A program made the position numbers and the translations under genes. This document shows, one piece after another, positions 20,986 through 64,000 of a DNA stretch of 64,000 bases; the stretch's first letter is position 1, and every line of letters starts with the position of its first letter. Under the pieces are notes generated by a model. That model was not told the origin of the DNA, made no database searches, and saw only the letters and a list, made by a program, of their open reading frames with translations. Source of the DNA: Nemertoderma westbladi (taxonomy: Eukaryota > Animalia > Xenacoelomorpha). The stretch lies in NCBI GenBank assembly GCA_032718475.1, contig JAUCBJ010006674.1, forward strand, positions 7,124-71,123, in the 5' to 3' direction.

Positions 20986-21074
20986 GGCACTATATATAAA
21001 TTACAATATAGACTTTATAGTTATTACTATAAAGACTATTAATATATTAAATCAAATTAAATATATTAAATCTA

Positions 21075-29720: not shown

Positions 29721-29747
29721 TCTACTAAATAAAGTGGAGAGGGCTGC

Positions 29748-30977: not shown

Positions 30978-31055
30978 CCGCTCCCAGAAAATGGGATTTT
31001 CAGTCTATAAAATATAAAAATCACAGTTTCTAAAACACAAAGATACTCTAAACAG

Positions 31056-33782: not shown

Positions 33783-34055
33783 TTAAGTTGGGGAGTCCCT
33801 AGATGTCGGTTGGATTAGGGAAGTGGTCGTGGGAAGAGTTTCTTGCCTTCCATAGTTTCCGGAGAGCTCTCTGTCTCTTTCCAGTAAACATAAACGACCC
33901 ACTGGGCGATTGAGCTGTTGAGTCTCAAAGACTATCCCTGGTTTCTTAAAGTTCCGCCGCATGACGACGAGCTCTACGGATCGCACCAAACCATCGCTCG
34001 AGATATAAGTCTCGATGATACGTCCTGTTTGCCATCGCTTACGTGGGAGATGTAT
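33783..34055 (-). pseudogene. BEL/Pao integrase C-terminal (DUF5641-like) remnant
   Basis: LPRKRWQTGRIIETYISSDGLVRSVELVV...NRPVGRLCLLE matches W..GRI...DG.VR.V...RPV..L; ends at the stop equivalent to that of ORF 43136-47212. Confidence 0.88.
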
Positions 34056-34080
34056 CAGTTATCCCACAAAAGCTTTTACA

Positions 34081-40877: not shown

Positions 40878-41243
40878 GTAACAGTTACTTTGTATTGCAG
40901 TGTAGGCATTAAATACAGTTTAATACTGTTCTGTCGAACAGTAACAGTTATAATCTTATTGCAGTAGGCAATAGGGTTGCAAAATACCGTAGTGACTGGT
41001 AAAACTGAACCGGTGCTTCTGTAGGTCAGTAGGCCTAACTGTCATCACCGGTACCGGTACTGCTGTACAAGTACATTTAGTATTATTTCGATTGTGATCT
41101 ATTGTATATTGTAGGCTGCCAGGGGAATAGGGATTGATCACCCCTCATTCTTTTGTATAGTTTACTTATTTCTGTCGGTTTTATTTACTAGTAGGCTAAT
41201 ATTGAGCAGAAGGCGTGTGACCCTGCTCAGATTGTTCAGATAA

Positions 41244-41815
41244 TTGTAGGCTGAGCTGCTGTCTGACTGTTGTTGAGTTTGGAGAGATTGCGGTGTGTGT
41301 AGAGTTGGTCTGATAAAGTGCCGTTAGTAAGTTGGGGCAGCCATATGCTGAAGGTCAATCCCCTCTTAAAGAATAAGTCGTACTACCGTGTTAGAACGCA
41401 TACTAACTAACAGTTTCAGAATCTGCATATACTGTAGTTTATTTAGGCTTGATTGTAGTCTGTCAGTGTTTTAGCCTGTGTTTGTTTGTGTGGTCTGTTC
41501 AGGTACCGTAATAGTTATTACTCAAATATTTGTAGGCTGGATTGTTGTCTAGCTATTTTTAGGTCTGAAGGGATTGCTGCGTGTGTAGAGTTGGTCTGAT
41601 CAAGTGCCGTTAGTAAGTTGGGGCAGCCATAAGCGGTAAGGTCAATCCCCTCTTAAAGAGTAAGTCGTACTACCGTGTTAGAACGCATACTAACTAACAG
41701 TTTCAGAATCTGCACATACTGTAGTTTGTTTAGGCTTGATAGTAGTTTGCCAGCGTTTGGTTTGTATTTGTTTGAGTATTCTGTACGGGTAGCGTAATAT
41801 TTATTATTCAGAGTT
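41244..41815 (+). repeat. ~286-bp tandem duplication in the 5' leader of copy A
   Basis: gattgc...gtgtgtagagttggtctgat...aggcttgat begins at 41286 and again at 41572. Confidence 0.9.
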
Positions 41816-43135
41816 TATGCGATTATTCGCAACATTCATGTCCCCAAGTTTATTCCTACAGTAATTGTGCTTGTTATACATACCGTTATAGTTAAACTAA
41901 CCCCGGTACTACATCAGGGCTGCTCGGCGTAGGTAAAGACTGGAGATTTTGTGCTTCGGTCACTCCAGCAGATGCCGTGGTTCTTTTAACTGTTCAAGTA
42001 TATTTAACTACTGATTATTTGTTATACCGGTACTTGTACCTAATTTAGGGTTTAGTGTACAGTGCTTTCCGAAGTAATTAGTGTAGGCAGTATATTTGTG
42101 TTGTAAAGTGGTTGATAGGCACATTCGTTAGCTCTATTAGCTTCTGGGTAGGAACAATCCGTGATACATAACGTAGTACCTATAGCGATACGGTTATAGG
42201 TCGTCAGGCGGTGGTATTTTCCTATCTGGACAGTACAATATATTTACTACTACTTATTATTTCAAATACCGTAGTACCCTGTCCGTTGTAATACAGTAAT
42301 AACCAGAATTCTAACCCTTTGTTAGGCTGGTTTGTAGACTTCCTGTAAAATTACCCTAAAAATTTCGTACGTAATATTTTGTTGTGTTTAATTAGAGAAT
42401 TAATCTCACCCATATCGTAAGTAATTTGTAGTATTAAGTAACTTAGGTAAATTAGAATTATCAGTTTTAGTGTCAAATAAATAGCACTTCACTGAGAGGC
42501 GTTCAGCTTCTGTGTAGTGACTCCCCCAGAAATAATAACATTTATTTCAAATATTGACAAAAACCCATATAACGGGTATATAAATATTATAAATCAACTC
42601 AAACGATTTATAAATAGTAGGCCTGCCATACAACAACTAGGTCTCAATATCAGTTGGACTACTGCTTAAATAACGGTAGTAGAGTAAGTTAAAGTAACCA
42701 AGTAACCCTAAAAATATTCAGAAATTCAATTATTCTAAAAATAATTGACATACCGGTATTTACCATAGGCTTATTATATTTATCTCTATAAATTTGAGCT
42801 GAAATCATACCGGTACTCTGTAATTAATTCTAGTTCATAATTATACTTATATATAATATAGGTGTAAGCTGTCTACCGGTATTCACGATAGGCCTATTAT
42901 ATATTTATATATATTTGTGCTAAAAATTATATACCGGTACTCTGTGACAAATCTAGTCTGTAATAATACTTATATATATATTATAAGCATACCGGTATTC
43001 TAATATATTATATATATATCACGCTACACTGAGCAGCAGTATCGGTAATTAATTATTAGGCTAACAGTGATACTGAATTACTAGACTTACTTTAACTGTA
43101 TTTATAGCCGTAGGCATTCAACTGTGTAAACAAAC

Positions 43136-46100
43136 ATGTCAGATTCAACCAAATCACTGTCAGATAGTCTCTTAGAAAGTGTTAGAATGAGTATTAGACT
43201 TAGACAGCGTATTAAAAGGATCCGTGACCAAGATCCAAGTATAGAACATCCTAGATCCAAGTCTAAGTCACCTACTATTGTAAGAAAGGCCATCCCTACA
43301 GTAGTAGTGTCAGACCCTAGGCTAGTAGAACAACGTAGGTCTATCATCGGCACTCGGGCCCAAGTCAAGCGGGATCAAGAAGCAGCTGTCAAGCAGCAGC
43401 AACATCCTAGCCAAGAACCTAGTTCTCAGCGGCCCGATAGCTCCAGTAGTTCGGATACTGTTGAGCGGACGCCCGAACGCAGAGCGGAGATGGCGGATAC
43501 GGTTTATGATGAGCGGCCAACCTATGAAGAATCAACCGACGCCACTTCTTCTCAAGTGGAAAGCGAAGTGGAAAGCGAATTAACAGCAGCAGAGAAGCCG
43601 CGAACTAGAGACGCCATTGACATCTACCTATCCGACTATCAGCGATTCTTAGGAGACGAAGAGTTGAGGAGACGACTGTCTGGACTTTCCCCCAATAGTG
43701 AAGGAGCCAAGTTTGTGTTGGACGCAATAGATGTGGAAATGTTGGCAGCGAATAGAGCGGAAATTGATGAAAGAATCCGCATCGTTAGAGAATGGGAACA
43801 ACAGTTGAAGAAAAAACAGATAGAGGACAGAAAGACAGCAGCAGTAGCAGCGGCAGAGGCAAAAGCAGCAGCGGCAGAGGCAAAAGCAGCAGCGGCAATG
43901 GCAGTGGTCGAAGCGGAACGGAGGGCATCTGAAGAAAAAGTCCAACTAGAGTTGGAGAATATTCAAGAGAAGCACGATTACTTAAATAAACAGATAACGG
44001 CTAGTGATATGCAGCTGATAAGCCAGACTACTTCCAAGAGACAGGGATTTACATCCTCTGATGAAGGAGATACAACAGATACTGAAGGCAAAGGAAATAG
44101 ATCTCGTCTAAGCAGACGTGGAAGAACATCCCACCGTCATAAATTGCCTGATTTGCCTCCAGCTGTTAGAAGGCAACTAAATAACACCAACTTAGGTAGT
44201 ACAGAACCCATAGACCAGGTGGTTAAAATAGAAAGACTCCCTACAATAGTTGATGAGCCTGAAATAATTAGGCCTGTCGTTCCCAAAGTCACTTCTGTGT
44301 TAGAGACCCCTGTACTTCCAGAGCTTAACTCTAAATTCCCTTTACATAGTACTACACTGCCTGTACCCGGTGGAACAGTCCAAGAGAATATCCCTGTCCA
44401 GATAGCAGAGAGAGAAATCAATAATTTGTCTCCCGTCGTCCCGCGTCAGCCCGCTACTATGTTGGCGACTCCCGCTTCAGCGGTTGAGTGGGTGGAAGAG
44501 GGACGGCGGGGGATGAATCTCCTGCTGGGACAGATGCAGGAGACTGTCCACCAACTTAAGGGAACAGTGAGGGAAAGTAGAGCAGAGTTGCAAGAAGTGC
44601 AGCAAAGTATCGCACTAGAACGCGACAAATTAGTCAATATCCAAAAGGGCATACCAATACCCCCTGTAACATTGTGTCCACCTGTTAGGTCTGAAGTATT
44701 ACATGCGCAAGGTGTGGAGCCTACACGCATCTATACTGCTAGTGAAGTTGAAACTCCTATAGCAAACCCTATTAAGGGTGATTATAGACCTGTTATTAAT
44801 GATATTCCCTATAGACCTGATAATGATCCGAGAAATTTATATACCGATAATTCGATATTAAATAACACGATGGCCCAAGAAAGCTTTACGCGTCAGATGG
44901 CTAGAACAGAAGCCCGCCAAGCGGTCAAAGTAGGAGAGATCGTCAAATTCAATGGAGACGAGATGAAATGGTTACCTTTCAACGAATATTACAAAGACAG
45001 CATACAGAACTCTGTGCTATCTAACGGAGAGAAACTTAGGTTCCTCATCAAGTGCTTGGAAGGACCTCCCAAGTTAATGGCGTTAAAGTTTATTGGACAT
45101 CCAGATGGATTAAGACAAGTTTGGGATACATTAAACATCAGGTATGGTAACAAGGATAACATAGCTAAGTATTTGTATGCAAAATTAGTAGCCCCTCGAC
45201 ACTTCCTTAGTAGCGGGATTATAGAGTTTTCTGATGAGATTCAAGAGATCTGTAGACAACTGGACTGGTTAGGTAAGTCGCATGAATATCAGAGTTCCAT
45301 GGTTATTGGAGCCGTAGTCTCTACCTTACCAAAGGGCGGAGTATGTACACGCTGGGACAAGAAAGTGTTGTACATGAATGAACAACAACGACGAAGTCCT
45401 ACCATGGCTGATCTCATGTCCTTCTTAGATGGTGAGGTAAAACTACAACTCATCAAGCAGTCCAGAGAGAAAACATCGGAAAATAAGGTAAGTGAGAAAC
45501 CCGCTTCTAGGAGAAGAGTAACACCAGTGTGTTATACTGACGACGGCGAAAGCCAAGCTTCTCAAGAAGAGGACAGCGGGAAAGACACAGCAAAATCTTA
45601 CTATGACAAAAAGAACTATAAAGACGTAAGTAAATACAAGTCTCGAACCAGTGACAGGAGAGAACAGGTAACAACAACCCCTCCTACGTCTCCTAAGAGA
45701 ATTCACGGAAGAAAGCCCGAAGAAAGAACGAGAGTGCATAACGTTACCCAAGGTAAGGTGAGTAACATCAAACCAAAATGTGCGCTGTGCGACGGGCCCC
45801 ACTGTTTGAGTGCGTGTGCTGAATTTCTAAAGAAATCCCCTGTAGACAGACGTACAGTCCTGTGGAATAAGCGGTTATGCTATAATTGCCTCAGATCGGG
45901 ACACCAACGGCGAACCTGTTACTCCGACGTAAAGTGTGCAAAGTGTGGCGCGAAACATCACATCTTGTTACACAGTGAGTTCGAACGAGACAACCCGAGT
46001 CAGGTAAGTGAGCCCAAATCACATGTCCAATTCAGTGATGTGAACGACACTGACCAAAGTTCTGAGTGGGAAGGATTCTATACGGACGAATTCTCCGATG

Positions 46101-47212
46101 CCAACGAATCCTGTTATCTAATAAATACCGCAGTGTATCGAGCACTTACTTACGAAAAAGACATCAACGATGAGTTTCCCCAAACTACTTTCGCCAAACA
46201 ACCATCTTGGAAAGCTCCAGCTTCCAACGTAGGAATCAGAGAATTTCCTGTAGTTCAGGTAAGAGTTCACGGTCTTAACAAAAGCTACATAGTGAACGCC
46301 CTCCTGGACTCCGGCAGCACAGGAACATTCATCGATCAAGAACTAGCCGAAGATATCTTTGCTGGACAACCCAAGTTCCGGACTAAATTGAATATGTCAG
46401 GAATTATGCAGGTTTGGAAATCTACCCTAACGGCAGATTACTATGTAGGTGTGTTGTCCACCCCCCAGGATAAGTTAGGAACACAAGGTATAAGGTCAGT
46501 AAAAATGGTGGCTATAAAGAACTTCGCTACTACCCAAGCAGACCTTTATAATTGGGACGAGGATGAGAGCATCCAACATCTTAAGATACCTCGATTCCAG
46601 ACGGATTATCCTGGAGTGCAAATACTTATCGGCCAAAACGCGCACGAGGCGCTCGAGACATTGGAAAAACGACCTGCTCAACCGCAGCCACTACAAACCT
46701 ATGCGGTAAGAACTAGAGTAGGTTGGTACTTTACTGGCCCTTCCCGCAGAACTCTCGAAGAGAGACTACCACCAGAAAGAATATGCCAGATAAATGGTTG
46801 GGAAGTGGAGAGCAGTGAAGTGGACGAACTAACTGAGGGAACACCATACTCCTCAGATAATGACGATATTAACTCCAATGAAGATCAATGGAGACATCGC
46901 CCCGAGATGATTAATCTAGCCGACATCGCTTCCAGAGGAGCGACTCCTCAAGAACGGATAGATACTCCCGGCTGGTTAGGTGGACCCGACTCCCTAAGTA
47001 AAGAAGAAGATGAATGGCCTCCTCATCTTACCACGGCGGAGAGTAGACAGGCCAAGGGAGCGGAGAAAGTAACACGGCAACCCAATCACCCAGCTGGTCG
47101 TTTATGTTTACTGGAAAGAGACCAAAAACTGTCCGGAAACTATGGAAGGCAAGATACTCTTCCTACGACCACTTCCCTAATCCGACAAATATCTAGGGAC
47201 TCCATAACATAA
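43136..47212 (+). CDS. gag-pol: BEL/Pao Gag-protease polyprotein with in-frame loss of RT, most of RNase H and integrase
   Basis: Long coiled-coil N-terminus; DUF1759-like KFNGDEMKWLPF...EKLRFLIKCLEG; knuckles CALCDGPHCLSAC, CYNCLRSGHQRRTC, CAKCGAKHHILLH; protease ALLDSGS; RNase H tail WRH...NLADIASRG...WLGGP...WP; last part of integrase tail. No RT YxDD region and no integrase core. Confidence 0.93.
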   Translation: MSDSTKSLSDSLLESVRMSIRLRQRIKRIRDQDPSIEHPRSKSKSPTIVRKAIPTVVVSDPRLVEQRRSIIGTRAQVKRDQEAAVKQQQHPSQEPSSQRPDSSSSSDTVERTPERRAEMADTVYDERPTYEESTDATSSQVESEVESELTAAEKPRTRDAIDIYLSDYQRFLGDEELRRRLSGLSPNSEGAKFVLDAIDVEMLAANRAEIDERIRIVREWEQQLKKKQIEDRKTAAVAAAEAKAAAAEAKAAAAMAVVEAERRASEEKVQLELENIQEKHDYLNKQITASDMQLISQTTSKRQGFTSSDEGDTTDTEGKGNRSRLSRRGRTSHRHKLPDLPPAVRRQLNNTNLGSTEPIDQVVKIERLPTIVDEPEIIRPVVPKVTSVLETPVLPELNSKFPLHSTTLPVPGGTVQENIPVQIAEREINNLSPVVPRQPATMLATPASAVEWVEEGRRGMNLLLGQMQETVHQLKGTVRESRAELQEVQQSIALERDKLVNIQKGIPIPPVTLCPPVRSEVLHAQGVEPTRIYTASEVETPIANPIKGDYRPVINDIPYRPDNDPRNLYTDNSILNNTMAQESFTRQMARTEARQAVKVGEIVKFNGDEMKWLPFNEYYKDSIQNSVLSNGEKLRFLIKCLEGPPKLMALKFIGHPDGLRQVWDTLNIRYGNKDNIAKYLYAKLVAPRHFLSSGIIEFSDEIQEICRQLDWLGKSHEYQSSMVIGAVVSTLPKGGVCTRWDKKVLYMNEQQRRSPTMADLMSFLDGEVKLQLIKQSREKTSENKVSEKPASRRRVTPVCYTDDGESQASQEEDSGKDTAKSYYDKKNYKDVSKYKSRTSDRREQVTTTPPTSPKRIHGRKPEERTRVHNVTQGKVSNIKPKCALCDGPHCLSACAEFLKKSPVDRRTVLWNKRLCYNCLRSGHQRRTCYSDVKCAKCGAKHHILLHSEFERDNPSQVSEPKSHVQFSDVNDTDQSSEWEGFYTDEFSDANESCYLINTAVYRALTYEKDINDEFPQTTFAKQPSWKAPASNVGIREFPVVQVRVHGLNKSYIVNALLDSGSTGTFIDQELAEDIFAGQPKFRTKLNMSGIMQVWKSTLTADYYVGVLSTPQDKLGTQGIRSVKMVAIKNFATTQADLYNWDEDESIQHLKIPRFQTDYPGVQILIGQNAHEALETLEKRPAQPQPLQTYAVRTRVGWYFTGPSRRTLEERLPPERICQINGWEVESSEVDELTEGTPYSSDNDDINSNEDQWRHRPEMINLADIASRGATPQERIDTPGWLGGPDSLSKEEDEWPPHLTTAESRQAKGAEKVTRQPNHPAGRLCLLERDQKLSGNYGRQDTLPTTTSLIRQISRDSIT

Positions 47213-47754
47213 TAACATATGGAGTGGGTGTGTGACTATATCATTTTATATTTGTTTTTATTTTATATTTATGTATGTATTATTACGTAATTTTATTATA
47301 ATCGTTTTCTTTAATTTTATTTAGTAGAATTAGCGATTATTTAGTAAATTAGTGCAATATATTAGTGTTTATTACGTACTTAATTACTTATAATATATTT
47401 AGTGCGACGGCAAGAAATAATTATTTTTCTCTTTCCTTACTGTCCGTATTATATTATAAATGCGAGACTATAGTAAGATGACATGTCAGTACTTCTTAAA
47501 GTACAATAAAGCCACTACTATATTTAAGTATTATTGGTAGGCAGAGTATTAGGAATGCAAAGTTCAGATCCTCGTGTCTCGGCTAAACCAAGCTCTGGGT
47601 AGACCTTGGAAACGACTTGCCTCTTCACACTGACATTGCTTCGTGCGATATTGCTCTTCTACCTTATAACAAATAATACATATAGTAGCGTGATGTCCCT
47701 CTAACAGTAGCGTAAAACGCAAATAAAGCTGTTAAACCTTTTGACCATCTGTAA

Positions 47755-48030
47755 TTCTAGTCGATTAAGATATCGTGGCACCCACCGATATACTTGAAAG
47801 ACAAATTCTAGAATCAGTGGTTAACGTCCCCAGACAAGTTCTGGAATAAATCGGTGCCCATCCTAAATATTAATTTAATATTTATTAAAATCTGTAAAAT
47901 CCCGATCCTTTAAAATTTCTAGTCAATTAAGATATCGCAGTATTTACCGATATTCTTAGAAGGACTATTTTATAGAATTAAGGATCCTAAGTCCCCAGAT
48001 ATGCTCTGGAATAAAATTTGTGTCAATTTT
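47755..48030 (+). repeat. Two diverged ~162-bp repeats in the inter-ORF spacer
   Basis: ttctagtc(g/a)attaagatatcg...ccgatat...gtccccaga...ctggaataaa at 47755 and 47917; also present in copies B and D. Confidence 0.8.
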
Positions 48031-48646
48031 AACATCAAATAATAAAATTCACGGGAATAAATTTAAATTCATATTTTTAAATGAATTTCATAAATTGTCA
48101 TTTTGTACAATTTATAACATTCCCAAAATTCCAGTAATTAATAGATCATGGGAGCGGAGATTCATATTGAGTGTACTAGAGTGTGAGAATCTCCAACATA
48201 TAGTCAATAGCCGATAAAATTTATAAAATCATGCATAAAGAGGATATTGACAACTAAAGAATTACTATTAAATAACATCCCAGATCTGTATGCATGAGAA
48301 TTACCCTAATTCTACCGCTAGCTTTCCATAATGTCACCATGGCAACAACCACGCTAGAATTAGAAGCAAGTTAAAGGAACAATAAAAGGCTTGCCCCATT
48401 GCGTAGCATAAGAGTATACATAGCGCACTATTAGTATCCAAGGATACATAGTAATAACGTGACATTCTGGAAGACACTGACTAACGGACAAATGGCATGC
48501 ATGTGTGCAGTAAGTAATGATTGTATGGAATTTGTGCGTTTATAGGTGAATGATACTACTAAAGTGTGTTTACAGTAGCTAATCGCAATTGTAAAGTAGC
48601 CCTAACTCTACCGAGATAGCCTCAAGTGGAATCAAGCCTTTGGGAC

Positions 48647-48789
48647 GGACAGTGGTGGGACTTGTGTCGATTATCGTTGTCGTGCTGTTGCTACATGTTG
48701 GCGCAAACACCGCGACAACGGTACATCGGCGCTGAGAAACCCACTGTCCGGGGGCAAAAGTCTAGTAGGCAGCGACGCCCGCTTGCCTA
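48647..48789 (+). promoter_or_regulatory. Conserved structured RNA element upstream of ORF2 (IRES-like candidate)
   Basis: Nested stems with compensatory changes among copies A, B (32177-32325) and D (62984-63134); ends 43 nt before the ATG. Function inferred. Confidence 0.6.
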
Positions 48790-48832
48790 AAATATTAGCT
48801 CATATTGATATCAATAAACTCAGATAGCAGAT

Positions 48833-49876
48833 ATGACGGAATTGATAGAAGATGACCTTGATATTAGAGAGCGATATACTCTACCTTTACAAGCGTTTGT
48901 GGATAGCTTGATACGCGGTGAAGCCGATCCGACTATTACGGAGGACGATGGTCGTTATATCGAACCGCTGATGTCCCAGGAACAACTTACGCGTGAATTG
49001 GACTATCGAAAATTAACCGCTCGCTATACGCATCGTAATGGTACGTATATGGACTTCCTAACTACCGGCCATCCTATCGATTTACATGATACGGACGATG
49101 TATACACCGAAAGGGAAATGGTTCTATTTAAATATCATACCCAGCGGAGTCGTAACGATAAACCGAGAATAGATCACGAAAATTATATTCGTTACATCAG
49201 AGCTTGGGAAGCGAACGCTGATTTACATTGTGATTCACGCCATCGCTATTATCCTGGACGCGCTTACGAAGGAGTTTATGCGTTCCATCCATATTTGTTT
49301 GCCTCCGTCGAGCAGAAATCGCGCCTATCAAGTTATGAACTATTGAAGCGCGTTGGAGAATGTATTTCAACCAAATATGTACGCAAATTCCTCAGGAGCA
49401 TTAATCCGAGTGACATCAATTCGTATAACTTAATAAACTTTATCCGTCAAGATCCGGCCTATGGAGACTTATTTGTCAACTCACACCCTGAGTTACAGGA
49501 AGTATATCGACGGCCTTACGAGTACAGAGCCCGCGAACGCGAGTTGGAAAGAACCATTAAACCAAGGAAGTTTCTAACTGCCTATGGTCCACCCACGGCC
49601 CTCGTTCAGACCACTCGTAAAGGACCCGTAAGAGCGGCTGTCTTGAAACGAGCTCTCAAAGCCGTTAGACCCCTCTCCCCGGACGTTGATGTCAATCAAC
49701 CCGGTACTTCGACCGGCGGATATACCGATCGCAATCCCATACCTTCTGATGCAATCATATTGCACCCTTCACCCAGGAGTTATAGCCCTCCTCGTAAAGT
49801 GGCTCGCCCCAAAGAGAAAAGGACTCTTGCTAGCTTTAAAAAACTGCGTAAACGCCGTCCGCGCAAGAAAGACTAA
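48833..49876 (+). CDS. ORF2 of copy A: in-frame internal deletion derivative (347 aa) of the 1417-aa exonuclease ORF
   Basis: First ~120 aa and last ~228 aa align with the ends of ORF 58683-62936; junction at HENYI-R-YIRAWEAN. Confidence 0.9.
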   Translation: MTELIEDDLDIRERYTLPLQAFVDSLIRGEADPTITEDDGRYIEPLMSQEQLTRELDYRKLTARYTHRNGTYMDFLTTGHPIDLHDTDDVYTEREMVLFKYHTQRSRNDKPRIDHENYIRYIRAWEANADLHCDSRHRYYPGRAYEGVYAFHPYLFASVEQKSRLSSYELLKRVGECISTKYVRKFLRSINPSDINSYNLINFIRQDPAYGDLFVNSHPELQEVYRRPYEYRARERELERTIKPRKFLTAYGPPTALVQTTRKGPVRAAVLKRALKAVRPLSPDVDVNQPGTSTGGYTDRNPIPSDAIILHPSPRSYSPPRKVARPKEKRTLASFKKLRKRRPRKKD

Positions 49877-49944
49877 CTGTTTAGAGTATTTTTATATTTT
49901 AGAAACTGTGATTTTGTATATTTTATAGACTTAAATCCCATTTT

Positions 49945-49954
49945 CTGGGAGCGG
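49945..49954 (+). other. Polypurine-tract position
   Basis: ctgggagcgg abuts the 3' LTR; identical (within cccattttctgggagcgg) in copies B and D. Confidence 0.75.
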
Positions 49955-51189
49955 TGTAAAAGCTTCTGTGGGATCTAACTGGCCCCTTTTGCTTCGCAAT
50001 CCAGTTTCCCCCCAGGCGCTGGAATACTCTAAAAAGGTTCTCTAACTGTATATATATTCCCCTCGCCCGCAAGGTACCGTTACAGGTGTTTTAACGGACA
50101 TAAAAGTCATTCTGCTATATACGTGTTTTGGCGGACATGGTAAGGCAAAAAACCTGTAATGTGCCAACTACCTTTCACAGCTTAGCCGTGATGATTCATA
50201 TTACGACATCTAACAGCTGGTTGCTGACATGGAAACAGCCATTGGATGCATGGTTCTTTGTTTGGCTTGAGCCAATCAGAGCGATTTTTCCTGTCGACGT
50301 GTAGCTTTTCGGCCGATCATAAGGAGAGTGTTCAGTCTTACTGTTTTTACTTGATACTTTGTTGTTATTGCTGTCTAAGCCAGAAACACCGGCTTTTTGG
50401 GAAGAACTCTAGTAAAACTGCTTAGATTATAGAAAGTATAACTGTTACCGGCGGTGTTACCTCACTTAATTTAACTGCACTAATCATATTGTTTGTACTG
50501 CTATTTACCGTCAGTTATTAATTGTATCTATTTGTTGATGGAAATATTGCTCTTTGGAGAATACGGATAAATCACCCAAAATTCCCAATTTTCTTGATAC
50601 ACTACAGGTTAGAGAGGCGGGCTATATATAACAATTGCGATTTATATCAATGTGGTGTGTATTGAATCTAATGTTATTTAGTAGACACTACCTGAGTCAA
50701 TTGCTGTTCTCTTTATGTGTGATCAAATATACTGACGGTCGGCAGAATAGTGTGCATGATTGTGAGTGTGATGTGACTGGTAACAAAGCATTTCCTAAAG
50801 AATGCGACTTATACTTTAATCATAAGCCTTATCGTTGCGTTTAGTATAAGTCCTAGCTCTGTTTAAATAGATAGAGCGCCACGTCCTAAAGGAACTGTTA
50901 ATATTCCCCGAAAGTTAATAATATCTGTCAGAAATTACATATTAGCGATCAATCGAATAATACAGTAGGCTTACACTGCAACCTTACACTGCAATAATAA
51001 AATCTAAGCATCCGAATTCAGCCTCCCGGGTGTAGATCCATCGGGTGAATGATCGCGCATGGGCTGGCTTCGGCTAATGTTTTGTTTATTAGCATAAAAT
51101 ATTGTCGTATGCTAAAGGTGTGTTAATTAACTAAAAGACATATAAATTTTGGCAGGTTAAACTGCTAAAGGTCTTCAAAAGCGCGAACA
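49955..51189 (+). repeat. 3' LTR of copy A
   Basis: Direct repeat of 39643-40877, followed by the TSD GAACAC. Confidence 0.97.
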
Positions 51190-54915: not shown

Positions 54916-55560
54916 TGTTCGCGCTTTCAGACCTTTAGCAGTTTAACCTGCCAATCTTAAATGTCCTTTTGATTATGAATCGACTTTAGCCCTTACCAAT
55001 TACCTGGTGTACTGAAGTTACATCTGCCGAAGCCAGTCCGTGCGCGGCGTATGACCCACGGTGTGGGAGACTGGATTCGGGTTCTTTAGGAAGTATTGCG
55101 GTGTAGGCTACTTTGTATTATTCGATTGATCGCTACTATATAATCTCTGACAACTATATTTACTTTCGGGGAAATATTAACAGTTCCTTTAGGACGTGGC
55201 GCTTTAAGTATAAAAACAGAGTTATGACTTATACTAATCACAACTAGATGGCCACAGAGTTTCGTAAATAGCGCAATCTTTAGGAGATGCTTTATTAACC
55301 TTCACACGACTTCACACGACTTTACACTACTTCACACTAAATTGCCGACCGTCACTGAATTTGATCATATATAAGGAGGATTGCAACTGACACACGTAGG
55401 GATTATGAAATAGCATTTAATTCACACAAAACCACTATAATTTAAGTCGCAGTTGCTACCGGTAGACTCTTTCTCCGCTTACCTCAGTAATCAATAAGAT
55501 TGAGGGGTTTATGATTATTTATCGGTATTCTGCAAATATAACATCCATTAATATATACAG
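54916..55560 (-). mobile_element. Copy C: partial, more diverged LTR (3' half) of the same BEL/Pao family
   Basis: Starts tgttcgcgctttcagaccttt and contains the invariant 31-mer; similarity fades near 55560. Confidence 0.88.
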
Positions 55561-56995: not shown

Positions 56996-57422
56996 GTTGC
57001 TATAAGTTACTCTAGGTTGCCGGACGTTTTGGACAATTTGGTCAGCAACTAGCAACTTAATTTGAGTAACATTAACTTTTAGTCTCCGTTATATGAGGCA
57101 TCTTTTACAGCAACAAACTTCGCGTTTACTTAGAGCAACTTGATCGGCAACCAGACATGTTCACTAAGTTGCTGATAGAGTTGCTCAAAATGTTGCCACG
57201 TACTGTAGAAAAAACAGGTCTTTAATTATTCGTCATGACGTATTGTAAGTGAACTTTACTTTAACTTTAACAGCTGTAACCCTGTAGCTAGACTTTGTTC
57301 TTACTGTAGAGTACCACCCATGGCTATATTTTGTACTTAAGAGTTCCGCTTTCTTTAATCTCAATTTTGTTCTTATAGTTCTGCATTTGGCTACATTTTG
57401 TTCAATTTGTATTGATACATGA

Positions 57423-58604
57423 TGTTCGCGCTTTCAGACCTTTGGCAGTTTAACCCGCCAAATTATGATGTCTTCTAGATAATAAATCACTTTTAGCCTA
57501 TGACAAATATTTAATTCACTACACTAGTCGAAACCAATCTGTGCGCGATCATTCACCCGCTGGATATACCCGGGAGATTGGGTTCGACGGCTTAATTTTA
57601 TTGCTATGTAAGCCTAATGTATTATTCGACTGACAGTATTATATAATCTCTGACAATATTATTCACCTTCGGGGAATATTAACAGTTCCTTTAGGACGTG
57701 GCGCTATATCTATATACACAGAGTTATGACTTAAACTACTCACAACGATATGGCTTAGTTATAATTCACATATATGGCGCATTCTTTAGGAAATGCTTCG
57801 TTATCAGGCTCACTCATACACAATGCTGCACAATACTGCACACTGATCTGCCGATCTTCACTGATTTTAGTTATATATAAAAGGAACACGGACCGACTCA
57901 TGTAGGGTCTATCAAATAACATTAGATTCACTTCAAACCACTTTAACATAAGTCACAATCGTTATATGTAACCTTTCTCTCTTACCTTCGGTATATCAAG
58001 AATATTGGGTTTCGGGGTTATTTATCGTTATTCCAAATATAATAATTCATCAACCATATTATGAAGAACTGACAGTAAATAGCAGTATAACAATATAAAA
58101 GTATGCACAGTGATTCAGTGTGCGTTAAGTTCATTAGTTTGATATTAAGTGTTGGTTTGTTGATAACCAGTTTGTGATAACGGATATATGCCCTTTATAA
58201 TTAAGCCTACTAGTGTTAGACTAAAACAGAAAAGCACAAAATATTTACAAGCCGTTCTCTCCTGGCTTAGGAAAGAAAGACCAACAACACTGAAAACTGA
58301 TAAGAATAACCTTATTTACAAAGGCTTCCACCCAACACAGAGAAAGAGCATACAGATAGGAAAATTCAGTTCAGTAGATCTGTGATAGGTCGAAATCAAA
58401 ATCAACTCAAATTCTATTGGCAGATACTTTCCCAAGCTGGTTGGACAATCAAACGTAGCCCAGATCCCTTCGCACAGCGAATCAGCCAATCAGCCGGTAG
58501 CTTGCGCTATTCGAGTTATAGATCCCTTTTTAGAGTATTCTAGCGACTGGGGGGGAACTGGTTAGCAAGGCAAACGAATCAGTTATCCCACAAAAGCTTT
58601 TACA
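57423..58604 (-). repeat. 3' LTR of copy D
   Basis: TGTAAAAGC...GCGCGAACA on the minus strand, 1182 bp. Confidence 0.93.
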
Positions 58605-58682
58605 CCGCTCCCAGAAAATGGGATTTAAGTCTATAAAATATACAAAATCACAATTTCTAATATACATAAATACTCTAAACAG

Positions 58683-61600
58683 TTAGTCTTTCTTGCGCGG
58701 ACGGCGTTTACGCAGTTTTTTAAAGCTAGCAAGAGTCCTTTTCTCTTTGGGGCGAGCCACTTTACGAGGAGGGCTGTAGCTCCTAGGCGAAGGGTGCAAT
58801 ATAATTGCATCAGAAGGTGCAGGGTTACGATCGGTATACCCGCCGGTCGAAGTACCTGGTTGATTAATATCAACCTCAGTGGAGCGAGGTCTAACGGCCT
58901 TTAGAGCGCGTCTCAGGACAGCAGCTCCTACGGGTCCTTGACGGGTCGTCTGGACACTAGCGGTGGGTGGACCGTGAGTGGTGAGGAACTTTCTCGGTTT
59001 AATGGTTCTCTCCAGCTCGCGTTCTCGGGTTCGATATTCATATGGTCGCCGAGATATTTCCTGTAGTTCAGGATGCGAGTTCACAAAGATGTCGCCATAC
59101 TCCGGGTCCTGACGGATAAAATTGATCAGGTGATATGTGGTTATATCATTAGGGTTAACGTTTCTAAGGTATTTCCTGACAAACTTGGTGGAAATACACT
59201 CACCAACACGCTTCATTAACTCGTAACTTGGTACGCGTGTTTTCTGTTCAATCGACGCGAATAGATAAGGATGGAACGCGTAAACTCCCTCGTAAGCTCG
59301 TCCAGGGTAATAGCGATGTCGGGATTCGCAATGTAAATCCGCGTTCGCTTCCCAAGCTCGGATGTATCGCAGGGTGATTATCTCGTCTACGCTCTCTAAA
59401 TCGCGATTAAAGGGACAATTGTAACTTTCATGTCCTTTAAGTTGACAGTAGTGACATTGAGTCATAAATTGTGGGCAGACGGCAAATATATGAGAGTTAT
59501 TAAGCCGGCAATAAGCACAATATATTTCCATCATCGGTTGTTCGAGGAAATAGGAACAAGGTACGCTCGAGTCTAGAGGGGTGAAGTGGTCTCTCGATGC
59601 GCATAATCGACAACGTTTTCGAGAAACGTAGTTGGCGTGTCGATAATCGTACGCTGTGAGACGCTGTGGACCTTGATACCACTCTATGACATAATCATTG
59701 TCACTGCTCCGGGAAGTTGTAGGCTGAATCGCTTCTGATTCCAAGCACACTGGTTCATCCTCCAGCTGTATAGACGAAGTGGGTGCGTCTGTCTCAGTAA
59801 GTGGATCCACTGTCTGTATTTCCACGACAGAATAACCTGTAGGTATTCGGGGTCTTTGTATAACAGATGAATGTGAGTTCTGTATACAAACGTCTTGAAA
59901 CACGGCAAATCCAGCGCTACTCAGTTTCTCCGCAGCTGAGTCTCTCAGACTGAGTTTGGTCAGCGCGCGGTCCTTGAACTGACTATCGACGTTACGGAAC
60001 GGAGTCAGAAAGCGCCGGAAACATTCGAAACGTATGAACTTATTGTGTTCGTCTAACTTGGCGAGTTTAGTTCCAAGTATTAACGGGTGAGCGCGTATGG
60101 TACGACTGCACACATCGGCTAGCCAACCGGCAAGTGCTGCGTTTTCAAAGATCGTGTATATAGCTAAGGAAGGGCGAAGTGGAACACTCATAAAGCTATA
60201 TACGGCACCAGGCGCAGTTAATGGTCCATCAAAATATAAACGAGAGTAATGATCTCCATATACTTGCTGGTAATTGGTAGGATTTCCAACTTTGAAATTC
60301 CATCCATATTCTTGAAAGGCAAGATGTCCGATGGATGTCCGTTGTACCTTAGTAATGTCGCTGGGTGTATTGGCATACATAGTGCGAAAGAAACCTCGGC
60401 CTTCGGCCCAAGGAGCAATCAGCTGAGTATCAACGAAAGGGTATGGAATGTTTTCCATATTCCGGAAGTCGTTTTGGAGATCTCCATAAACAGCTGAGCC
60501 GATTTTTAGGATTCTTTCGTTAAACAACATTTCGAGCACGGGTTGGGGTAACATTGATCCGTCGATACCCATGGCCGGTTTGCGCTCGGTGTCGGTGACG
60601 TAACGCTGCGCGAGCTCGAATTGTCCATGTCGAAGTTTCTTTTGTGTCTCCGTAAGGGTTTCAAAAGAATAATCGATCACGTCGGAACACGCTCGAGTGA
60701 ATACGTGGGTAGAACCAGCGAGTCCTCGTATATGTATCATTCGCGTAGTTCCTAGTTCTCCCACCGGAACGCTACCTTCGTTGTCATAAGTAACAACGCC
60801 ATACATCTCGATAACGTTAAGAGTCTCGTTCCATTCTTTAGTGGCGTTTTCGAGAGTCATTCCCACTGGATGCCACAAAGTAGCGCATTCGCTAGCATTG
60901 GGTAAATCTCTATACTTTAAGCATTGTGTAGTATAGGTTTCCACATCTCCATATCGTTTTATTCTTTCTTCCTCGAATAACACGTCAAGATTCCAGTGTA
61001 CCAATCGAGTTTTAATGAATCCATCAAGATTGTACGGAGGTAATATTTCTTTCTCTATTCTGGAAATATTATACGGTTTTCGAAATGAGTTTAGTTTAAC
61101 TAGCTGATCTAGATGTTTTTGTAGTTGTTCGAGTTCGACGAGGTCGAGAGGATTGATCAATGGTAGAAACTTCAGACTATGCGTAGGATCTTCTGGTTTT
61201 ACCATGTAATATTGCTTTAAATTGACGTAATAAGGATGATCCTTAATTCCATAAAATGAGTCCGGCAAAGGTCTAGCGCGTATGTTAACATCGTGCACCA
61301 TGCGACGGACAAGATCCGCTCTATTGTCCGGAGGCTCAACAAGTACGCCATCGACACGGGCAGCCTCGACGGGTGGACGTTGTAGCATGGGAGCGTCAGC
61401 AACGAGCTCTTGAGATCTGAGATCGGTGTTAACCGGTTGAGGCTGTACCGTAGCAAAGAGCTTGTCTTTAAAATGAGGAACCATCGAGGGGTGGAGAATC
61501 GTTTTGGAATAGAGATCCGTCACGAGAATTTGAGCTTCTGGTTGGGCTAAAGCTGCTTCTTCCCTCTCAGTCAGCTCTATATGTCTCTCCTCGAGCTGAT

Positions 61601-62936
61601 TTTCCTCCGCTTGTTGTTGCAAGCGCTCGTCCAGGAATTCCTGTAAAGAGTAGGTTCGTCCACGTTCGATGTCCTCCTCTAGATTTTGTATTTCTCTATC
61701 GAACTGGGGTAAAGCTAGTTCTTTCACCGCTTGGACTTGTTGTTGCAATTTACGTTTCTCCAAGCAATCGTAAGTTCCTTTTCCGATTTTCTGCCGAATA
61801 GCGTCCAATGCATTTCGTATCACGCTCTCTTCGACTTCTGTAACAGGTTGGATCGGAGGAAGGCCAGGACGGTTGTAGGGGTTAAACGGTGATATTAGAT
61901 GACCGCGTCCTAGTCCAGCGAGGTAAGGTTGGCGAATATCCAACGAACCCACTACCGGAGTGCCACCAATCAACTGTTCAGGTAACACCAGATCTTTGAA
62001 CAGTGAGTACAGTTCGGGAGGATCCGTAATACTATTAGGATCTAGAGTTTGAGGTATCACTTGGGAATGGGGAGGTCTGACCGAGTATTCCGGAACTCTG
62101 ATCATGGGTTTACTCAATGATCGCTTAAGGCGCGCGACCGTAGGTGATACGTCGAAAAGGTTACGCTCGAAACTCCCATAAGTATATCGCGTAAAACTAT
62201 GTTTAGCGCAACGTCTCCGAGGATGTTTATGCCTTTCGATTTGCTGGTTAGGTCTAGGGCATTCGTCACAGTAATACCAAAGACGCACGTCTTGAAGGGG
62301 AAACGCGGGTGATCGCTCTCCAGTTTTACAATATTCCTCCATCTGTTCGAAGCTATCTGGAACGACAGGGAGTGGTCGATCGGCGGTAAGATACATCATC
62401 GTAAAATAGAGCCGTTTGAGTTCCGTCATGGGATCTGGATGTATACCTTGAGGATATCGAGTTTCGAGGTTTTGTTGACTAGCAACATTGAGATAGGTCT
62501 CTCTTAGGAATTCTAGATATTCGTTGAAGCCGCTACGTTTATCAGGTTCTTCAACATCTTCTCTTTCGAGTTTATTTCGAATAGAGTTCTCGTGTTCTAT
62601 TCTCGATTTGTCGTTGCGACTCCGCTGGGTATGATATTTAAATAAATCCATTTCCCTTTCGGTATCGACATCGTCGGTGTCGTGTAAATCAATAGGATGA
62701 CCAGTAGTCAAGAAGTCCATATACGTACCATTACGATGCGTATAGCGAGCAGTGAATTTTCTATAGCCCAATTCACGCGTAAGTTGCTCCTGGGATATTG
62801 GCGGTTCGATATAACGACCATCGTCCTCCGTAGTAGTTGGATCAGCGTCGCCGCGTATCAAGCTATCGACAAACGCTTGTAAAGGTAGAATATATCTCTC
62901 CCTGATACCAAGATCATCTTCTATTAATTCAGTCAT
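58683..62936 (-). CDS. Retrotransposon-borne 1417-aa protein with putative DEDDy (WRN/EXD/RNase D-like) 3'-5' exonuclease, CCHC zinc fingers and basic C-terminus
   Basis: ExoI VVTYD718NE720G; LPQPVLEMLFNERILKIGSAVYGD819L (ExoII); FVDTQLIA; SIGHLAFQEYG; PL...Y927TIFE931 (ExoIII-like); CRLCASRDH..C, CAYC..H..CP, CHYCQLKGHESYNC; KKLRKRRPRKKD. The ORF itself is certain; the domain call is by motif recognition. Confidence 0.8.
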   Translation of the reverse strand: MTELIEDDLGIRERYILPLQAFVDSLIRGDADPTTTEDDGRYIEPPISQEQLTRELGYRKFTARYTHRNGTYMDFLTTGHPIDLHDTDDVDTEREMDLFKYHTQRSRNDKSRIEHENSIRNKLEREDVEEPDKRSGFNEYLEFLRETYLNVASQQNLETRYPQGIHPDPMTELKRLYFTMMYLTADRPLPVVPDSFEQMEEYCKTGERSPAFPLQDVRLWYYCDECPRPNQQIERHKHPRRRCAKHSFTRYTYGSFERNLFDVSPTVARLKRSLSKPMIRVPEYSVRPPHSQVIPQTLDPNSITDPPELYSLFKDLVLPEQLIGGTPVVGSLDIRQPYLAGLGRGHLISPFNPYNRPGLPPIQPVTEVEESVIRNALDAIRQKIGKGTYDCLEKRKLQQQVQAVKELALPQFDREIQNLEEDIERGRTYSLQEFLDERLQQQAEENQLEERHIELTEREEAALAQPEAQILVTDLYSKTILHPSMVPHFKDKLFATVQPQPVNTDLRSQELVADAPMLQRPPVEAARVDGVLVEPPDNRADLVRRMVHDVNIRARPLPDSFYGIKDHPYYVNLKQYYMVKPEDPTHSLKFLPLINPLDLVELEQLQKHLDQLVKLNSFRKPYNISRIEKEILPPYNLDGFIKTRLVHWNLDVLFEEERIKRYGDVETYTTQCLKYRDLPNASECATLWHPVGMTLENATKEWNETLNVIEMYGVVTYDNEGSVPVGELGTTRMIHIRGLAGSTHVFTRACSDVIDYSFETLTETQKKLRHGQFELAQRYVTDTERKPAMGIDGSMLPQPVLEMLFNERILKIGSAVYGDLQNDFRNMENIPYPFVDTQLIAPWAEGRGFFRTMYANTPSDITKVQRTSIGHLAFQEYGWNFKVGNPTNYQQVYGDHYSRLYFDGPLTAPGAVYSFMSVPLRPSLAIYTIFENAALAGWLADVCSRTIRAHPLILGTKLAKLDEHNKFIRFECFRRFLTPFRNVDSQFKDRALTKLSLRDSAAEKLSSAGFAVFQDVCIQNSHSSVIQRPRIPTGYSVVEIQTVDPLTETDAPTSSIQLEDEPVCLESEAIQPTTSRSSDNDYVIEWYQGPQRLTAYDYRHANYVSRKRCRLCASRDHFTPLDSSVPCSYFLEQPMMEIYCAYCRLNNSHIFAVCPQFMTQCHYCQLKGHESYNCPFNRDLESVDEIITLRYIRAWEANADLHCESRHRYYPGRAYEGVYAFHPYLFASIEQKTRVPSYELMKRVGECISTKFVRKYLRNVNPNDITTYHLINFIRQDPEYGDIFVNSHPELQEISRRPYEYRTRERELERTIKPRKFLTTHGPPTASVQTTRQGPVGAAVLRRALKAVRPRSTEVDINQPGTSTGGYTDRNPAPSDAIILHPSPRSYSPPRKVARPKEKRTLASFKKLRKRRPRKKD

Positions 62937-64000
62937 ATCTGCTATACGAGTTCACCAATATTATAATGAGTTTATATATGTATTAGGCGAGCGGGCGTCG
63001 CTGCCTACTTCTCCCTTGCCCCCGGACAGTATGAGATTCTCAGCGCCGATGTACCGCTGTCGCTATACTTTCGCCAACGACGTAGCCGTACAACGACAAC
63101 GATAACCGGCACAAGTCACTCAACTGTCCGTCCCAAAGGCTTAGATGTACTTCAGGTTTTCCTTGGAGAGTTAGGTTACTTTTACGATTGCGACTAGCTA
63201 CTGTAAACACACTTTAGCAGTAACATTCACCTATAAACTCACAAATACCACACAACTGGTCACAACTACGCACATTCGGGCCATTTGTCCGTTAGTCAAT
63301 GCCTTCCAGAATGTCACTGTATTATTATGTATCCTTGGATACTAGTAGTGCGCTATTTATTCCCTATGCTATTCAATGGGACAAGCTTTCTATTGTTCTT
63401 TTAACTCCATTCTAATTCTAGCGTGGTTGTTGCTATGGTGACATTATGCAAAGCTAGCGGTAGAATTAGGGTAATTCCAATGCATACAGATCTGGGATGT
63501 TATTTAATAGTATTCTTTAATAGTCAATGTTCTGTTTTATACATGACTTTAAGAATTTTATCGGCTATTGACTATGTTTGGGAGACTTTCACACACTCAT
63601 ACGCATGATAAGATAAATCTCCGCTCCCTTGATCTATTAATTAATGGAATTTTGGGAATGTTATAAATTGCGTAAAATGGCAATTTATTAAATTCATTAA
63701 AAGGCATGAATTTAAATTTATTCCCTGAAATTTTATTATTTGACAACTAAATGGACATATTTTGATTCTAGAACATGTCTGGGGACACAAGATCCTTAAT
63801 TCTATGACAATTGTCTTTTTAAGAATATCGGTAAATGCTACGATATCTTAATTGACTAGAATTATTGCAGGATCTGAATTTTACAGATTTTGATTTATTA
63901 GATTTTGCAAATATTAATTAATTAATATTTGAGATGGGCACCGATTTATTCCAGAACTTGTCTGGGGACGTTAACCACTGATTCTAGAATTTGTCTTTTA

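Follow-up and report, generated by a model that had tools for sequence, protein, structure and literature searches.

Why should an LTR retrotransposon carry, in the position of env, a large intact gene that is not an envelope gene? The question is raised by a locus of Nemertoderma westbladi, analysed here in a window of 64,000 nucleotides (contig JAUCBJ010006674.1, positions 7,124 to 71,123) which holds three copies, A, B and C, of one element family (Table 1). In copy C the gene, ORF3, sits between the integrase end and the polypurine tract (PPT) and 3′ LTR. The initial annotation described an intact 4.25-kb reading frame there, in element sense, with homologues at the matching site in copies A and B, and both statements are confirmed. 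The integrase stop of copy C is expected near 64590, outside the window. As the pol of this copy is likewise outside, the linkage of ORF3 to pol is drawn through the spacer common to the copies (92.7% identity between C and A over 1099 nt). The ORF3 remnant of copy B is 89% identical to copy C over aa 1-120 and 83% over aa 1179-1405, that of copy A 46% over aa 201-486; internal deletion has removed the exonuclease domain from A and B, and it is retained in copy C only. An identity as env was ruled out by a hydropathy scan, in which the best 19-residue Kyte-Doolittle mean was 1.19 (0.73 at the N-terminus), giving neither signal peptide nor membrane anchor and bearing out the earlier remark that transmembrane helices and env features are absent.

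Table 1. Features of the element copies in the window (position 1 is its first letter).
Feature	Position	Strand	Remarks
ORF3, copy C	58683..62936	-	1417 aa, intact, no internal stops
N-terminal 690 aa of ORF3	60867..62936	-	no Pfam match; no counterpart in database relatives
DEDDy-like 3′-5′ exonuclease domain (predicted), aa 700-945	60102..60839	-	from motif order, profiles, relatives
Exo I, copy C	D718 60783-5; E720 60777-9	-	
Exo II and Exo III, copy C	D819 60480-2; Y927 60156-8; E931 60144-6	-	
Three Cys/His zinc knuckles and E..A...R.R...G motif, aa 1109-1222	59271..59612	-	conserved
Arg/Pro/Lys-rich C-terminal tail	58686..59039	-	basic cluster at end
Non-coding spacer, integrase end to ORF3, copy C	62937..64000	-	runs past window edge
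Long G-U-rich hairpin upstream of ORF3	63023..63130	-	44 pairs; in 3/3 copies
Small hairpin beside long one	62984-63007	-	in all three copies
PPT preceding 3′ LTR, copy C	58605..58618	-	identical 14-mer in 3/3 copies
3′ LTR, copy C	57423..58604	-	1182 bp, TG...CA
LTR-internal 12-nt motif, copy C	58177..58188	-	candidate self-primer
Candidate span enclosing motif	58069..58210	-	bounded by splice-donor-like and acceptor/initiator-like sites
Related LTR fragment, 3′ half	54916..55541	-	
Copy B	39643..51189	+	complete deletion derivative, recently inserted; 11,547 bp
LTRs, copy B	39643-40877 and 49955-51189	+	1231/1235 identical
6-bp target duplication, copy B	39637-39642 and 51190-51195		
Primer-site position, copy B	40878..40887	+	TGG absent; perfectly reverse-complementary to LTR 40127-40136
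Leader segment, copy B	40895..40907	+	predicted LTR pairing just upstream of sole AATAAA (40684)
Gag-protease ORF, copy B	43130..47212	+	in-frame fusion with integrase C-terminal remnant
ORF3 remnant, copy B	48833..49876	+	in-frame deletion of ~aa 121-1180
Copy A	29748..34080	-	5′ LTR stub fused to integrase C-terminus (33783-34058); spacer and PPT present
ORF3 remnant, copy A	31098-32109	-	broken
3′ LTR, copy A	30977-29748	-	
LTR motif, copy A	30499-30510	-	

ORF3 is clearly under purifying selection, with dN/dS near 0.09. Between copies C and B, whose N-terminal region is conserved, the ratio is 0.085 over 120 codons and 0.092 over 239 codons. Among the in-ORF variants listed from public contigs 23 of 34 are synonymous (expected share 0.29, p 5e-6), and none of the 12 indels listed falls inside ORF3. 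The nuclease domain itself is overlapped by ten of the contig pieces listed, nine of them gap-free, at 81-97% identity, and the two codon variants listed within it are both synonymous.

The element has most of the hallmarks of BEL/Pao. Copy B lacks RT, RNase H and the integrase core. Its gag matches DUF1759 (E 7e-12), with an aspartic protease (E 0.009), Cys/His knuckles and a DSG motif, and the last 46 aa of the gag-protease ORF are 76% identical to the integrase end of copy A, which matches DUF5641 (E 2.9e-6). A DUF1759 gag and a DUF5641 integrase end serve as BEL/Pao markers. Paired TG...CA LTRs of ~1.2 kb, a target-site duplication, a PPT, a gag with knuckles, a protease, the DUF5641 end and a third gene in the env position are all as in Belpaoviridae (PMC8742986; de la Chaux and Wagner, PMC3118150). 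To this extent the BEL/Pao identity proposed in the initial annotation holds, but the primer site and the size depart from it: the ICTV describes an 18-nt site for tRNA-Arg or tRNA-Gly and a genome of 4.2-10 kb (PMC8742986), whereas copy B has no such site, in agreement with the contigs, and already exceeds that range in its deleted state; nor is the third gene env-like. Since the window contains no RT of this element, it is termed BEL/Pao-type rather than a formal member. The whole element is probably near 18 kb, as copy B, from which RT, RNase H, the integrase core and 3.2 kb of ORF3 are missing, still measures 11.5 kb. In public contigs of N. westbladi the family is abundant, and 4 of the 15 joints listed from these skip the nuclease domain. 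Together with the youth of copy B this suggests that copies without the nuclease are still mobile, as is expected for ORF3 action in trans. In this multicopy LTR retrotransposon of BEL/Pao type, ORF3 is an accessory gene that is intact and under selection.

Its predicted product is an RNA-binding 3′-5′ exonuclease with three zinc knuckles. Three distant database proteins (P0001, P0002 and P0008; 575-648 aa) combine the same nuclease domain with the triple-knuckle module, and the order and spacing of Exo I-III are those of EXD2, Rrp6, Nibbler/Mut-7, EXD1, Egalitarian and RNase D. The D-x-E of Exo I is present, D718 and E720 being invariant in 4/4 family members at 20-30% identity; the best local match of this block is the Exo I block of P0002, equalled by 11 of 1000 shuffles, and it was not recovered with P0001 alone. 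D819 of Exo II has an Asp counterpart in P0001, P0002 and RNase D, whereas P0008 seems to lack an Asp at this column of the alignment. In Exo III, Y927 is followed by Glu931 rather than the Asp of Y-x3-D. P0001 shares this Glu, P0002 and P0008 carry Asp there, and all four family members have an acid after the Exo III Tyr. An alternative upstream register (Y913/S917) would place Ser as the last residue. The ordered DEDDy motifs first reported are found at the very residues named, but the initial annotation does not remark on Glu as the last acid or on the alternative register; a DEDDy-like function stands as a prediction, a strict DEDD does not. Unlike cellular DEDDy nucleases, the domain shows patchy sequence likeness below Pfam thresholds, an insertion of ~30 residues after Exo I, and fusion to knuckles.

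Independent searches each put DEDDy nucleases at rank one, and the fold evidence is weak. The protein language-model neighbours are PF01612 (score 0.92). The ORF scores 47.5 bits with a profile from two of the relatives, where the best of 500 shuffles reaches 4.2 bits; with the family profile RNase D scores 11.7 bits and the best of 1000 shuffles 4.3. RNase D was also the sole plasmid tblastn match (E 6). Pfam yielded no family for whole ORF3 or for the nuclease piece, and PDB sequence searches no nuclease below E 0.9. A single-sequence structure model of the ORF piece reached pLDDT 31, while the second model represents P0002, which heads the alignment, and not the ORF (pLDDT 35). The top structural match of the P0002 model is EXD2, with Foldseek E 0.11 and Z 5.4 over 84 residues, values below the trust levels of the tools; its other neighbours are Rrp6, Nibbler, EXD1, Egalitarian and RNase D. 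A DnaQ/RNase H-like DEDDy fold is a weak candidate assignment from these models.

The knuckle module is common to P0001, P0002, P0008 and L002, the sole locus obtained when viral, metagenome and genome contigs were scanned for the relatives' context; there it lies in an unrelated 904-aa ORF, without nuclease or pol. Its nearest solved structure is the HIV-1 nucleocapsid (E 7.5e-4). A derivation of the knuckles from the element's own gag was rejected, as tblastn of gag against ORF3 gave no match at E<1e-3. The N-terminal 690 aa gave no blastp match to the three relatives at E<0.1, so the unit of some 1400 aa emphasised by the initial annotation is not what is conserved: nuclease and knuckle parts alone are common, and these appear to define an unnamed protein family, delimited here. 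Further members were sought with region 640-1000, which found no homologue among 1574 candidates, and with profile A1, which returned its own member only. The basic cluster of the tail is possibly a nuclear signal.

Juno and Vesta of bdelloid rotifers are Ty3/gypsy-like. Rodriguez et al. (2017, PMC5408684) described a DEDDy ORF3 in these LTR retrotransposons and in Athena/Terminon elements, a precedent correctly given in the initial annotation, and the accessible portion of that paper names no BEL/Pao carrier. Rotifer ORF3 is likewise a separate ORF 3′ of pol in the env place, with a DEDDy-type domain, no membrane segment and an altered acidic tetrad, given in that portion as DEED (PMC5408684) against D-E-D-E here. 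Compared by description, the present ORF3 is distinguished by its 1417 aa, triple knuckle module and 690 extra N-terminal residues, and the homologue searches returned no rotifer sequence. The same portion of the 2017 paper gives the rotifer ORF3s no established function and reports no sign of selection for the types tested (PMC5408684). A transposon-borne DEDDy domain with a suggested role in nucleic-acid end processing is also described for Dada; unlike ORF3, it lies inside the DDE transposase of a DNA transposon and is canonical DEDD (PMC3706591, in the part available).

A candidate substrate is offered by the primer site. The family, which has no tRNA site, likely primes reverse transcription with its own RNA, judging by the letters beside its LTRs. 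The primer-site position of copy B is complementary to a motif of its LTR at 10 of 10 positions. The copy C motif equals the letters adjoining the LTR end, 12/12, in a 13-contig cell of public run X1, a match predicted beforehand for this second LTR subfamily, and a second contig cell matches the copy A motif 12/12, both matches being unphased as regards single molecules. The three LTR motifs differ from each other at 2-4 of 12 positions; as in Tf1-type elements, the primer site next to the 5′ LTR is complementary to a stretch of the LTR, and the two vary together. LTR conservation falls near position 500; a message beginning at the motif, in the manner of Tf1, would fit this drop and would count against the trimming proposed below. 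No tRNA genes were found within the window, and in an 820-nt ViennaRNA fold the helix between motif and primer site had a probability of 0.0. A primer made by a splice junction was ruled out in copy B, which alone could be tested, by the lack of any 7-mer match. In Tf1-type self-priming the release of the primer is credited to RNase H, so that an exonuclease is not required, and we know of no exonuclease gene in Tf1. Self-priming via the mRNA 5′ end is described for Tf1, Tf2, Tj1 and the Tf1/sushi group (PMC4600332, in the part available). Unlike Tf1, the present family belongs to another LTR superfamily, and its primer may be something other than the 5′ end of the mRNA.

The best explanation, put forward tentatively, is that the ORF3 enzyme trims the element's own LTR-derived RNA primer. 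ORF3 would be expressed from a spliced or internal message, and its protein would likely act in trans on element RNA. The zinc knuckles would help the LTR motif to anneal to the primer site, the nuclease would degrade RNA 3′ of the motif and stall at the duplex, and the resulting 3′-OH, abutting the LTR end, would constitute the finished self-primer. Here we infer the fold, catalysis, the expression route, self-priming and the nuclease-primer link, nuclease and primer being tied solely by co-occurrence in one family. The initial annotation had offered RNA end-processing and counter-silencing side by side, and the self-priming signature, which it does not report, favours the former more than the latter.

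A general processing of ends in the particle, unrelated to priming, which would trim the 3′ ends or tails of the genomic RNA or clean the ends of cDNA ahead of integration, is less probable. Such a role has been suggested for the rotifer ORF3s (PMC5408684) and for the Dada domain (PMC3706591), in each case in the part of the paper available; DEDDy enzymes work on RNA or single-stranded DNA, and Tf1-type priming manages without an exonuclease. Most LTR elements, however, replicate without such a gene (PMC8742986), which makes a family-specific need likelier, such as the one posed by the unusual primer site.

About as doubtful is a non-catalytic, Egalitarian-like RNA adaptor, in which exonuclease fold, knuckles and basic tail would bind structured element RNA, such as the long hairpin that precedes ORF3, and so serve the export, transport or packaging of that RNA. 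Third in the Foldseek list for the P0002 model comes Egalitarian-BicD in complex with the I-factor signal (E 0.14), and Egalitarian has all five catalytic residues, which are dispensable for its RNA binding and function; the Glu as last acid would also suit an adaptor, but the invariant Exo I acids and the acid kept after the Exo III Tyr argue against one. The long hairpin is kept in all three copies (z -3.0, -4.2 and -2.0); 4 of 53 pairs have changed on both sides, a count with little covariation power in three related sequences, and other windows of the spacer fold as strongly. An Rfam scan gave no family at gathering level and two chance matches in the spacer, which argues against a known ribozyme or IRES there.

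Counter-silencing, whereby the nuclease would trim or bind piRNA/siRNA 3′ ends or precursors and so weaken host silencing, is unlikely to a similar degree. Among the nearest structures of the P0002 model are Nibbler and EXD1, both of them acting on small RNAs, but the same lists are headed by EXD2 and also contain Rrp6, Egalitarian and RNase D. The abundance of the family and the mobility of its deletion copies, consistent with trans action, would suit this role; against it, the rotifer DEDDy ORF3 has no clear link to copy number and is itself covered by small RNAs, according to the available part of the rotifer study (PMC5408684).

A variant of primer trimming, in which an LTR intron is excised, its 10-12-nt motif anneals and ORF3 trims the tail in the style of an intronic snoRNA, is improbable; if true, it would allow priming without a tRNA and without an RNase H cut. 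That ORF3 is a mere passenger, useless to the retrotransposon whether it was captured from the host or is a nested element, is very improbable: the domain has been lost from many copies, and the knuckles of L002 indicate that ORF3 parts are mobile, but the low dN/dS largely refutes it, and the unchanged position in LTR subfamilies only ~75% alike, a GC3 of 0.415 that equals that of gag (0.413) and the absence of introns also speak against it.

Keyword searches of the literature bearing on BEL/Pao found no BEL/Pao exonuclease ORF. DEDDy third ORFs, already known from rotifers, are here extended to BEL/Pao-type elements, and clear purifying selection, a nuclease-plus-knuckle family and a concrete candidate substrate are new in relation to the rotifer work. 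The ICTV describes BEL/Pao as tRNA-primed, which the self-priming signature contradicts. Should the nuclease prove to finish the primer, the function of a non-env ORF3 would be joined to the question of how tRNA-less elements prime.

ORF3, the large open reading frame of copy C, is an intact part of an LTR retrotransposon family and has remnants in copies A and B, in line with the initial annotation, which had placed such an ORF ahead of the polypurine tract and 3′ LTR. The element structure was pieced together from the three copies within the window. Copy B is complete: a 6-bp target duplication flanks it, and its LTRs agree in 1231 of 1235 bases. Its gag-protease ORF contains DUF1759 (E 7e-12) and continues in frame into what is left of the integrase C-terminus. 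Beyond a spacer of 1620 bp comes its ORF3, from which about aa 121-1180 are deleted in frame. In copy A, ORF3 is broken, and the spacer and the integrase end (DUF5641, E 2.9e-6) are retained; copy C leaves the window about 590 bases before its integrase stop. The spacers of C and A are 92.7% identical over 1099 nt. DUF1759 and DUF5641 are markers of BEL/Pao; the accessible parts of two papers give DUF1759 simply as an LTR domain. On these sequence grounds the element is termed BEL/Pao-type rather than a formal member, because no RT of its own lies within the window.

Coordinates of features in the window
Feature	Copy	Coordinates	Strand
LTR element	A	29748-34080	
LTR element, complete	B	39643-51189	+
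LTR element	C	57423-64000	
ORF3, 1417 aa	C	58683-62936	-
Purine tract then 1182-bp LTR, 3′ of ORF3	C	LTR end 57423	-
Long conserved hairpin before ORF3	C	63023-63130	
Long conserved hairpin before ORF3	B	48646-48750	
Long conserved hairpin before ORF3	A	32214-32321	
Other strongly folding spacer window	C	63650-64000	
Primer site, first 10 letters	B	40878-40887	
LTR match of primer site	B	40127-40136	
Homologous 12-nt motif	C	58177-58188	
Homologous 12-nt motif	A	30499-30510	
Splice-like sites around motif	B	40100-40202	
Splice-like sites around motif	C	58069-58210	
Splice-like sites around motif	A	30396-30532	
Leader segment paired with LTR	B	40895-40907	
LTR partner beside AATAAA	B	40657-40690	
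Second LTR-end/primer-site sequence	B	40939-40952	
LINE-like RT fragment		28833-29728	+
LINE-like RT fragments		34060-34500, 35802-37345, 38436-39483	-
F-box ORF		53182-54699	+
Decayed gag-like fragments		21051-22131	+
Tandem arrays		10790-11680, 13035-13615, 17638-18460, 56527-57001	

Copy A is closer to copy C in LTR and spacer (90-93%), and copy B is closer in ORF3 (83-89% at the amino acid level, versus 46% for A), a mosaic pattern that suggests recombination between subfamilies. LINE-like RT fragments flank the LTR copies; those on the two sides of copy A differ, and its target duplication is absent. Between copies B and C lies an F-box ORF of 505 aa that has no introns (F-box-like, E 1e-9) and gives a weak LRR signal. 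The gag-like fragments (zinc knuckle PF00098, E 6e-4) probably belong to another LTR family. Repeat units in the tandem arrays measure 19-31 nt, and two of these arrays form inverted pairs, an arrangement typical of foldback or MITE-like elements.

No Pfam family matches ORF3, and, as the initial annotation had noted, it contains neither a signal peptide nor a membrane helix. A full search of 1.84 billion representatives returned two matches, P0001 (E 3e-7) and P0002 (E 6e-4), to which a knuckle-profile search added P0008. What these unnamed proteins of 575-648 aa share is the nuclease-like domain and a module in which three Cys/His knuckles are joined to a conserved tail motif; none of the three has a counterpart of the N-terminal 690 aa of ORF3. 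Their contigs are 9-21 kb, compatible with repeats. The ORF3 knuckles resemble HIV-1 nucleocapsid (E 7.5e-4). A further locus, L002, encodes the knuckle-plus-tail module in a 904-aa ORF (615-3329) lacking both the nuclease and any Pfam family; we regard the module as an unnamed mobile domain.

Residues 700-945 are very probably a DEDDy-type nuclease domain. ORF3 scores 47.5 bits with a profile built from two relatives, where none of 500 shuffles exceeds 4.2, and RNase D scores 11.7 bits with the family profile, where 1000 shuffles reach 4.3 at most; with profiles built without ORF3, RNase D does not rise above zero. The Exo I residues D718 and E720 are invariant in all four family members, and D819 of Exo II aligns with an Asp in P0001, P0002 and RNase D, P0008 being without it. 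Exo III allows two registers, Y927/E931 or Y913 with Ser as last residue, of which the former is preferred, as the residues that follow agree with those of P0001 without a shift. Four further searches each scored below their own trust level: PF01612 clusters as language-model neighbours of both the ORF3 piece and P0002 (0.92, reached by 4-10 of 100 shuffles); Foldseek with the P0002 model (EXD2 first, E 0.11, closely followed by Egalitarian, Nibbler and EXD1); VIA-align with the same model (EXD2 first of 48,161 chains, Z 5.4, rmsd 3.3, 84 residues; an exosome chain second); and plasmid tblastn (sole match RNase D, E 6). The assignment is likely since these weak searches agree with one another and with the motif order. 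Ordered motifs and the top ranks of EXD2 and RNase D favour the proposed DEDDy exonuclease; the fold models have low confidence (pLDDT 31 for the ORF3 piece, 35 for P0002). Egalitarian can function without its catalytic residues (10.1101/2025.08.03.668247); a similar non-catalytic RNA adaptor role for ORF3 is unlikely.

DEDDy domains occur in other mobile elements, according to the accessible parts of the sources: in the ORF3s of rotifer Juno and Vesta, with DEED and function not demonstrated (Rodriguez et al., PMC5408684), in Dada transposases (PMC3706591) and in Terminons (PMC6431247). The ICTV profile of BEL/Pao gives a tRNA primer site, 4.2-10 kb and a third gene that is env-like at most (PMC8742986). 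The accessible text of PMC6338049 mentions a DnaQ-like domain solely by citing the rotifer paper, and that of PMC13524379 lacks the word 'exonuclease'. Among the papers listed by searches of the accessible literature, none is on a BEL/Pao exonuclease ORF; Repbase, GyDB, subscription journals or supplements may describe one. The initial annotation had proposed counter-silencing or RNA/cDNA end processing; its observation is confirmed and its interpretation supported in part only. Counter-silencing is unlikely, and so, to the same degree, is general cleaning of RNA or cDNA ends.

Between copies C and B, ORF3 has a dN/dS of 0.085 (120 codons) or 0.092 (239 codons); the value against copy A, where ORF3 is broken, is 0.24, dS being close to saturation. 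In every one of the 30 bins of the compared stretch there are contigs from four public runs, with many variants among them, and the family is therefore multicopy. Among 40 listed variants (1442 in total), 34 fall within ORF3, 23 of them synonymous (p 5e-6) and 25 at third positions (p 2e-6); the nuclease domain holds two, both synonymous. ORF3 makes up 63% of the compared stretch and contains none of 12 listed indels (112 in total). Nine of ten listed contig pieces overlapping the nuclease domain by at least 30 nt are 81-97% identical to it and gap-free. Of 47 joints, 15 are listed, and four of these skip the entire domain; nuclease-less derivatives are therefore common. That ORF3 is a mere passenger gene is highly improbable.

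No TGG follows the 5′ LTR of copy B. Instead, the first 10 letters of its primer site are the exact reverse complement of an LTR-internal stretch, a match found for only 10 of 2243 leader 10-mers. The homologous 12-nt motif differs from that of copy B at three positions in C and four in A. Letters expected after 5′ LTRs of the C subfamily were written down before a contig test on the 8 listed loose-end cells at 57415-57440, which precede the LTR end in plus-strand orientation. One cell (13 contigs, agreement 0.55) ends in the copy C motif at 12/12, and two (14 contigs in X1, one in X4, both public runs) in the copy A motif at 12/12, shared base 57422 included; the chance of a given 12-mer is about 2-3e-7. 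Another (4 contigs) matches the copy B motif at 8/10, and four match no motif, which would be expected next to an LTR that is a 3′ or solo one. Because each cell represents a majority of contigs, motif and primer site are phased in copy B only. A primer-site position complementing a co-varying LTR motif, with no tRNA site, carries the sequence signature of self-priming, as in Tf1 and Tj1 (PMC4600332, accessible part). The accessible texts of PMC3118150, PMC2774666 and PMC8220671 lack 'self-prim', and that of PMC7879559 lacks 'self'. About 60 bases into the copy B leader, the LTR-end/primer-site sequence is repeated and again complements the motif.

When 820 nt are folded with ViennaRNA, the motif/primer-site helix has a probability of 0.0, which speaks against simple fold-back; the duplex in isolation has -13.5 kcal/mol. 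The predicted pairing of leader with LTR just upstream of its only AATAAA could mask the poly(A) signal of the 5′ LTR. Near position 500, where the motif lies, LTR identity between B and C climbs from 49-58% to 69-85%, compatible with a Tf1-like transcript start there. In A and C, a TATAAA stands 11 bases upstream of the motif. In all three LTRs the motif is surrounded by sites that resemble a splice donor (GT), a branch point and an acceptor (or initiator); they may enclose an LTR intron, and together with TATAAA they are compatible with an mRNA whose 5′ end is not at the motif. Upstream of ORF3, all three copies have a 44-pair hairpin (z -3.0, -4.2, -2.0) and a small hairpin. Among 53 pairs there are four two-sided changes, a number reached in 15 of 500 shuffles; Rfam has no match, and the spacer contains other windows whose folding is just as strong. 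A conserved CAG ends two bases ahead of the ORF3 start codon, which suggests expression from a spliced message.

The nuclease and the primer signature are linked only by co-occurrence in one family, and 3′ trimming of a primer would be needed only if the motif is not the mRNA 5′ end. Our best explanation, put forward tentatively, is that the ORF3 product finishes the element's own RNA primer: the zinc knuckles would help the LTR motif and the primer site to form a duplex, and up to this duplex the predicted nuclease would trim the RNA.
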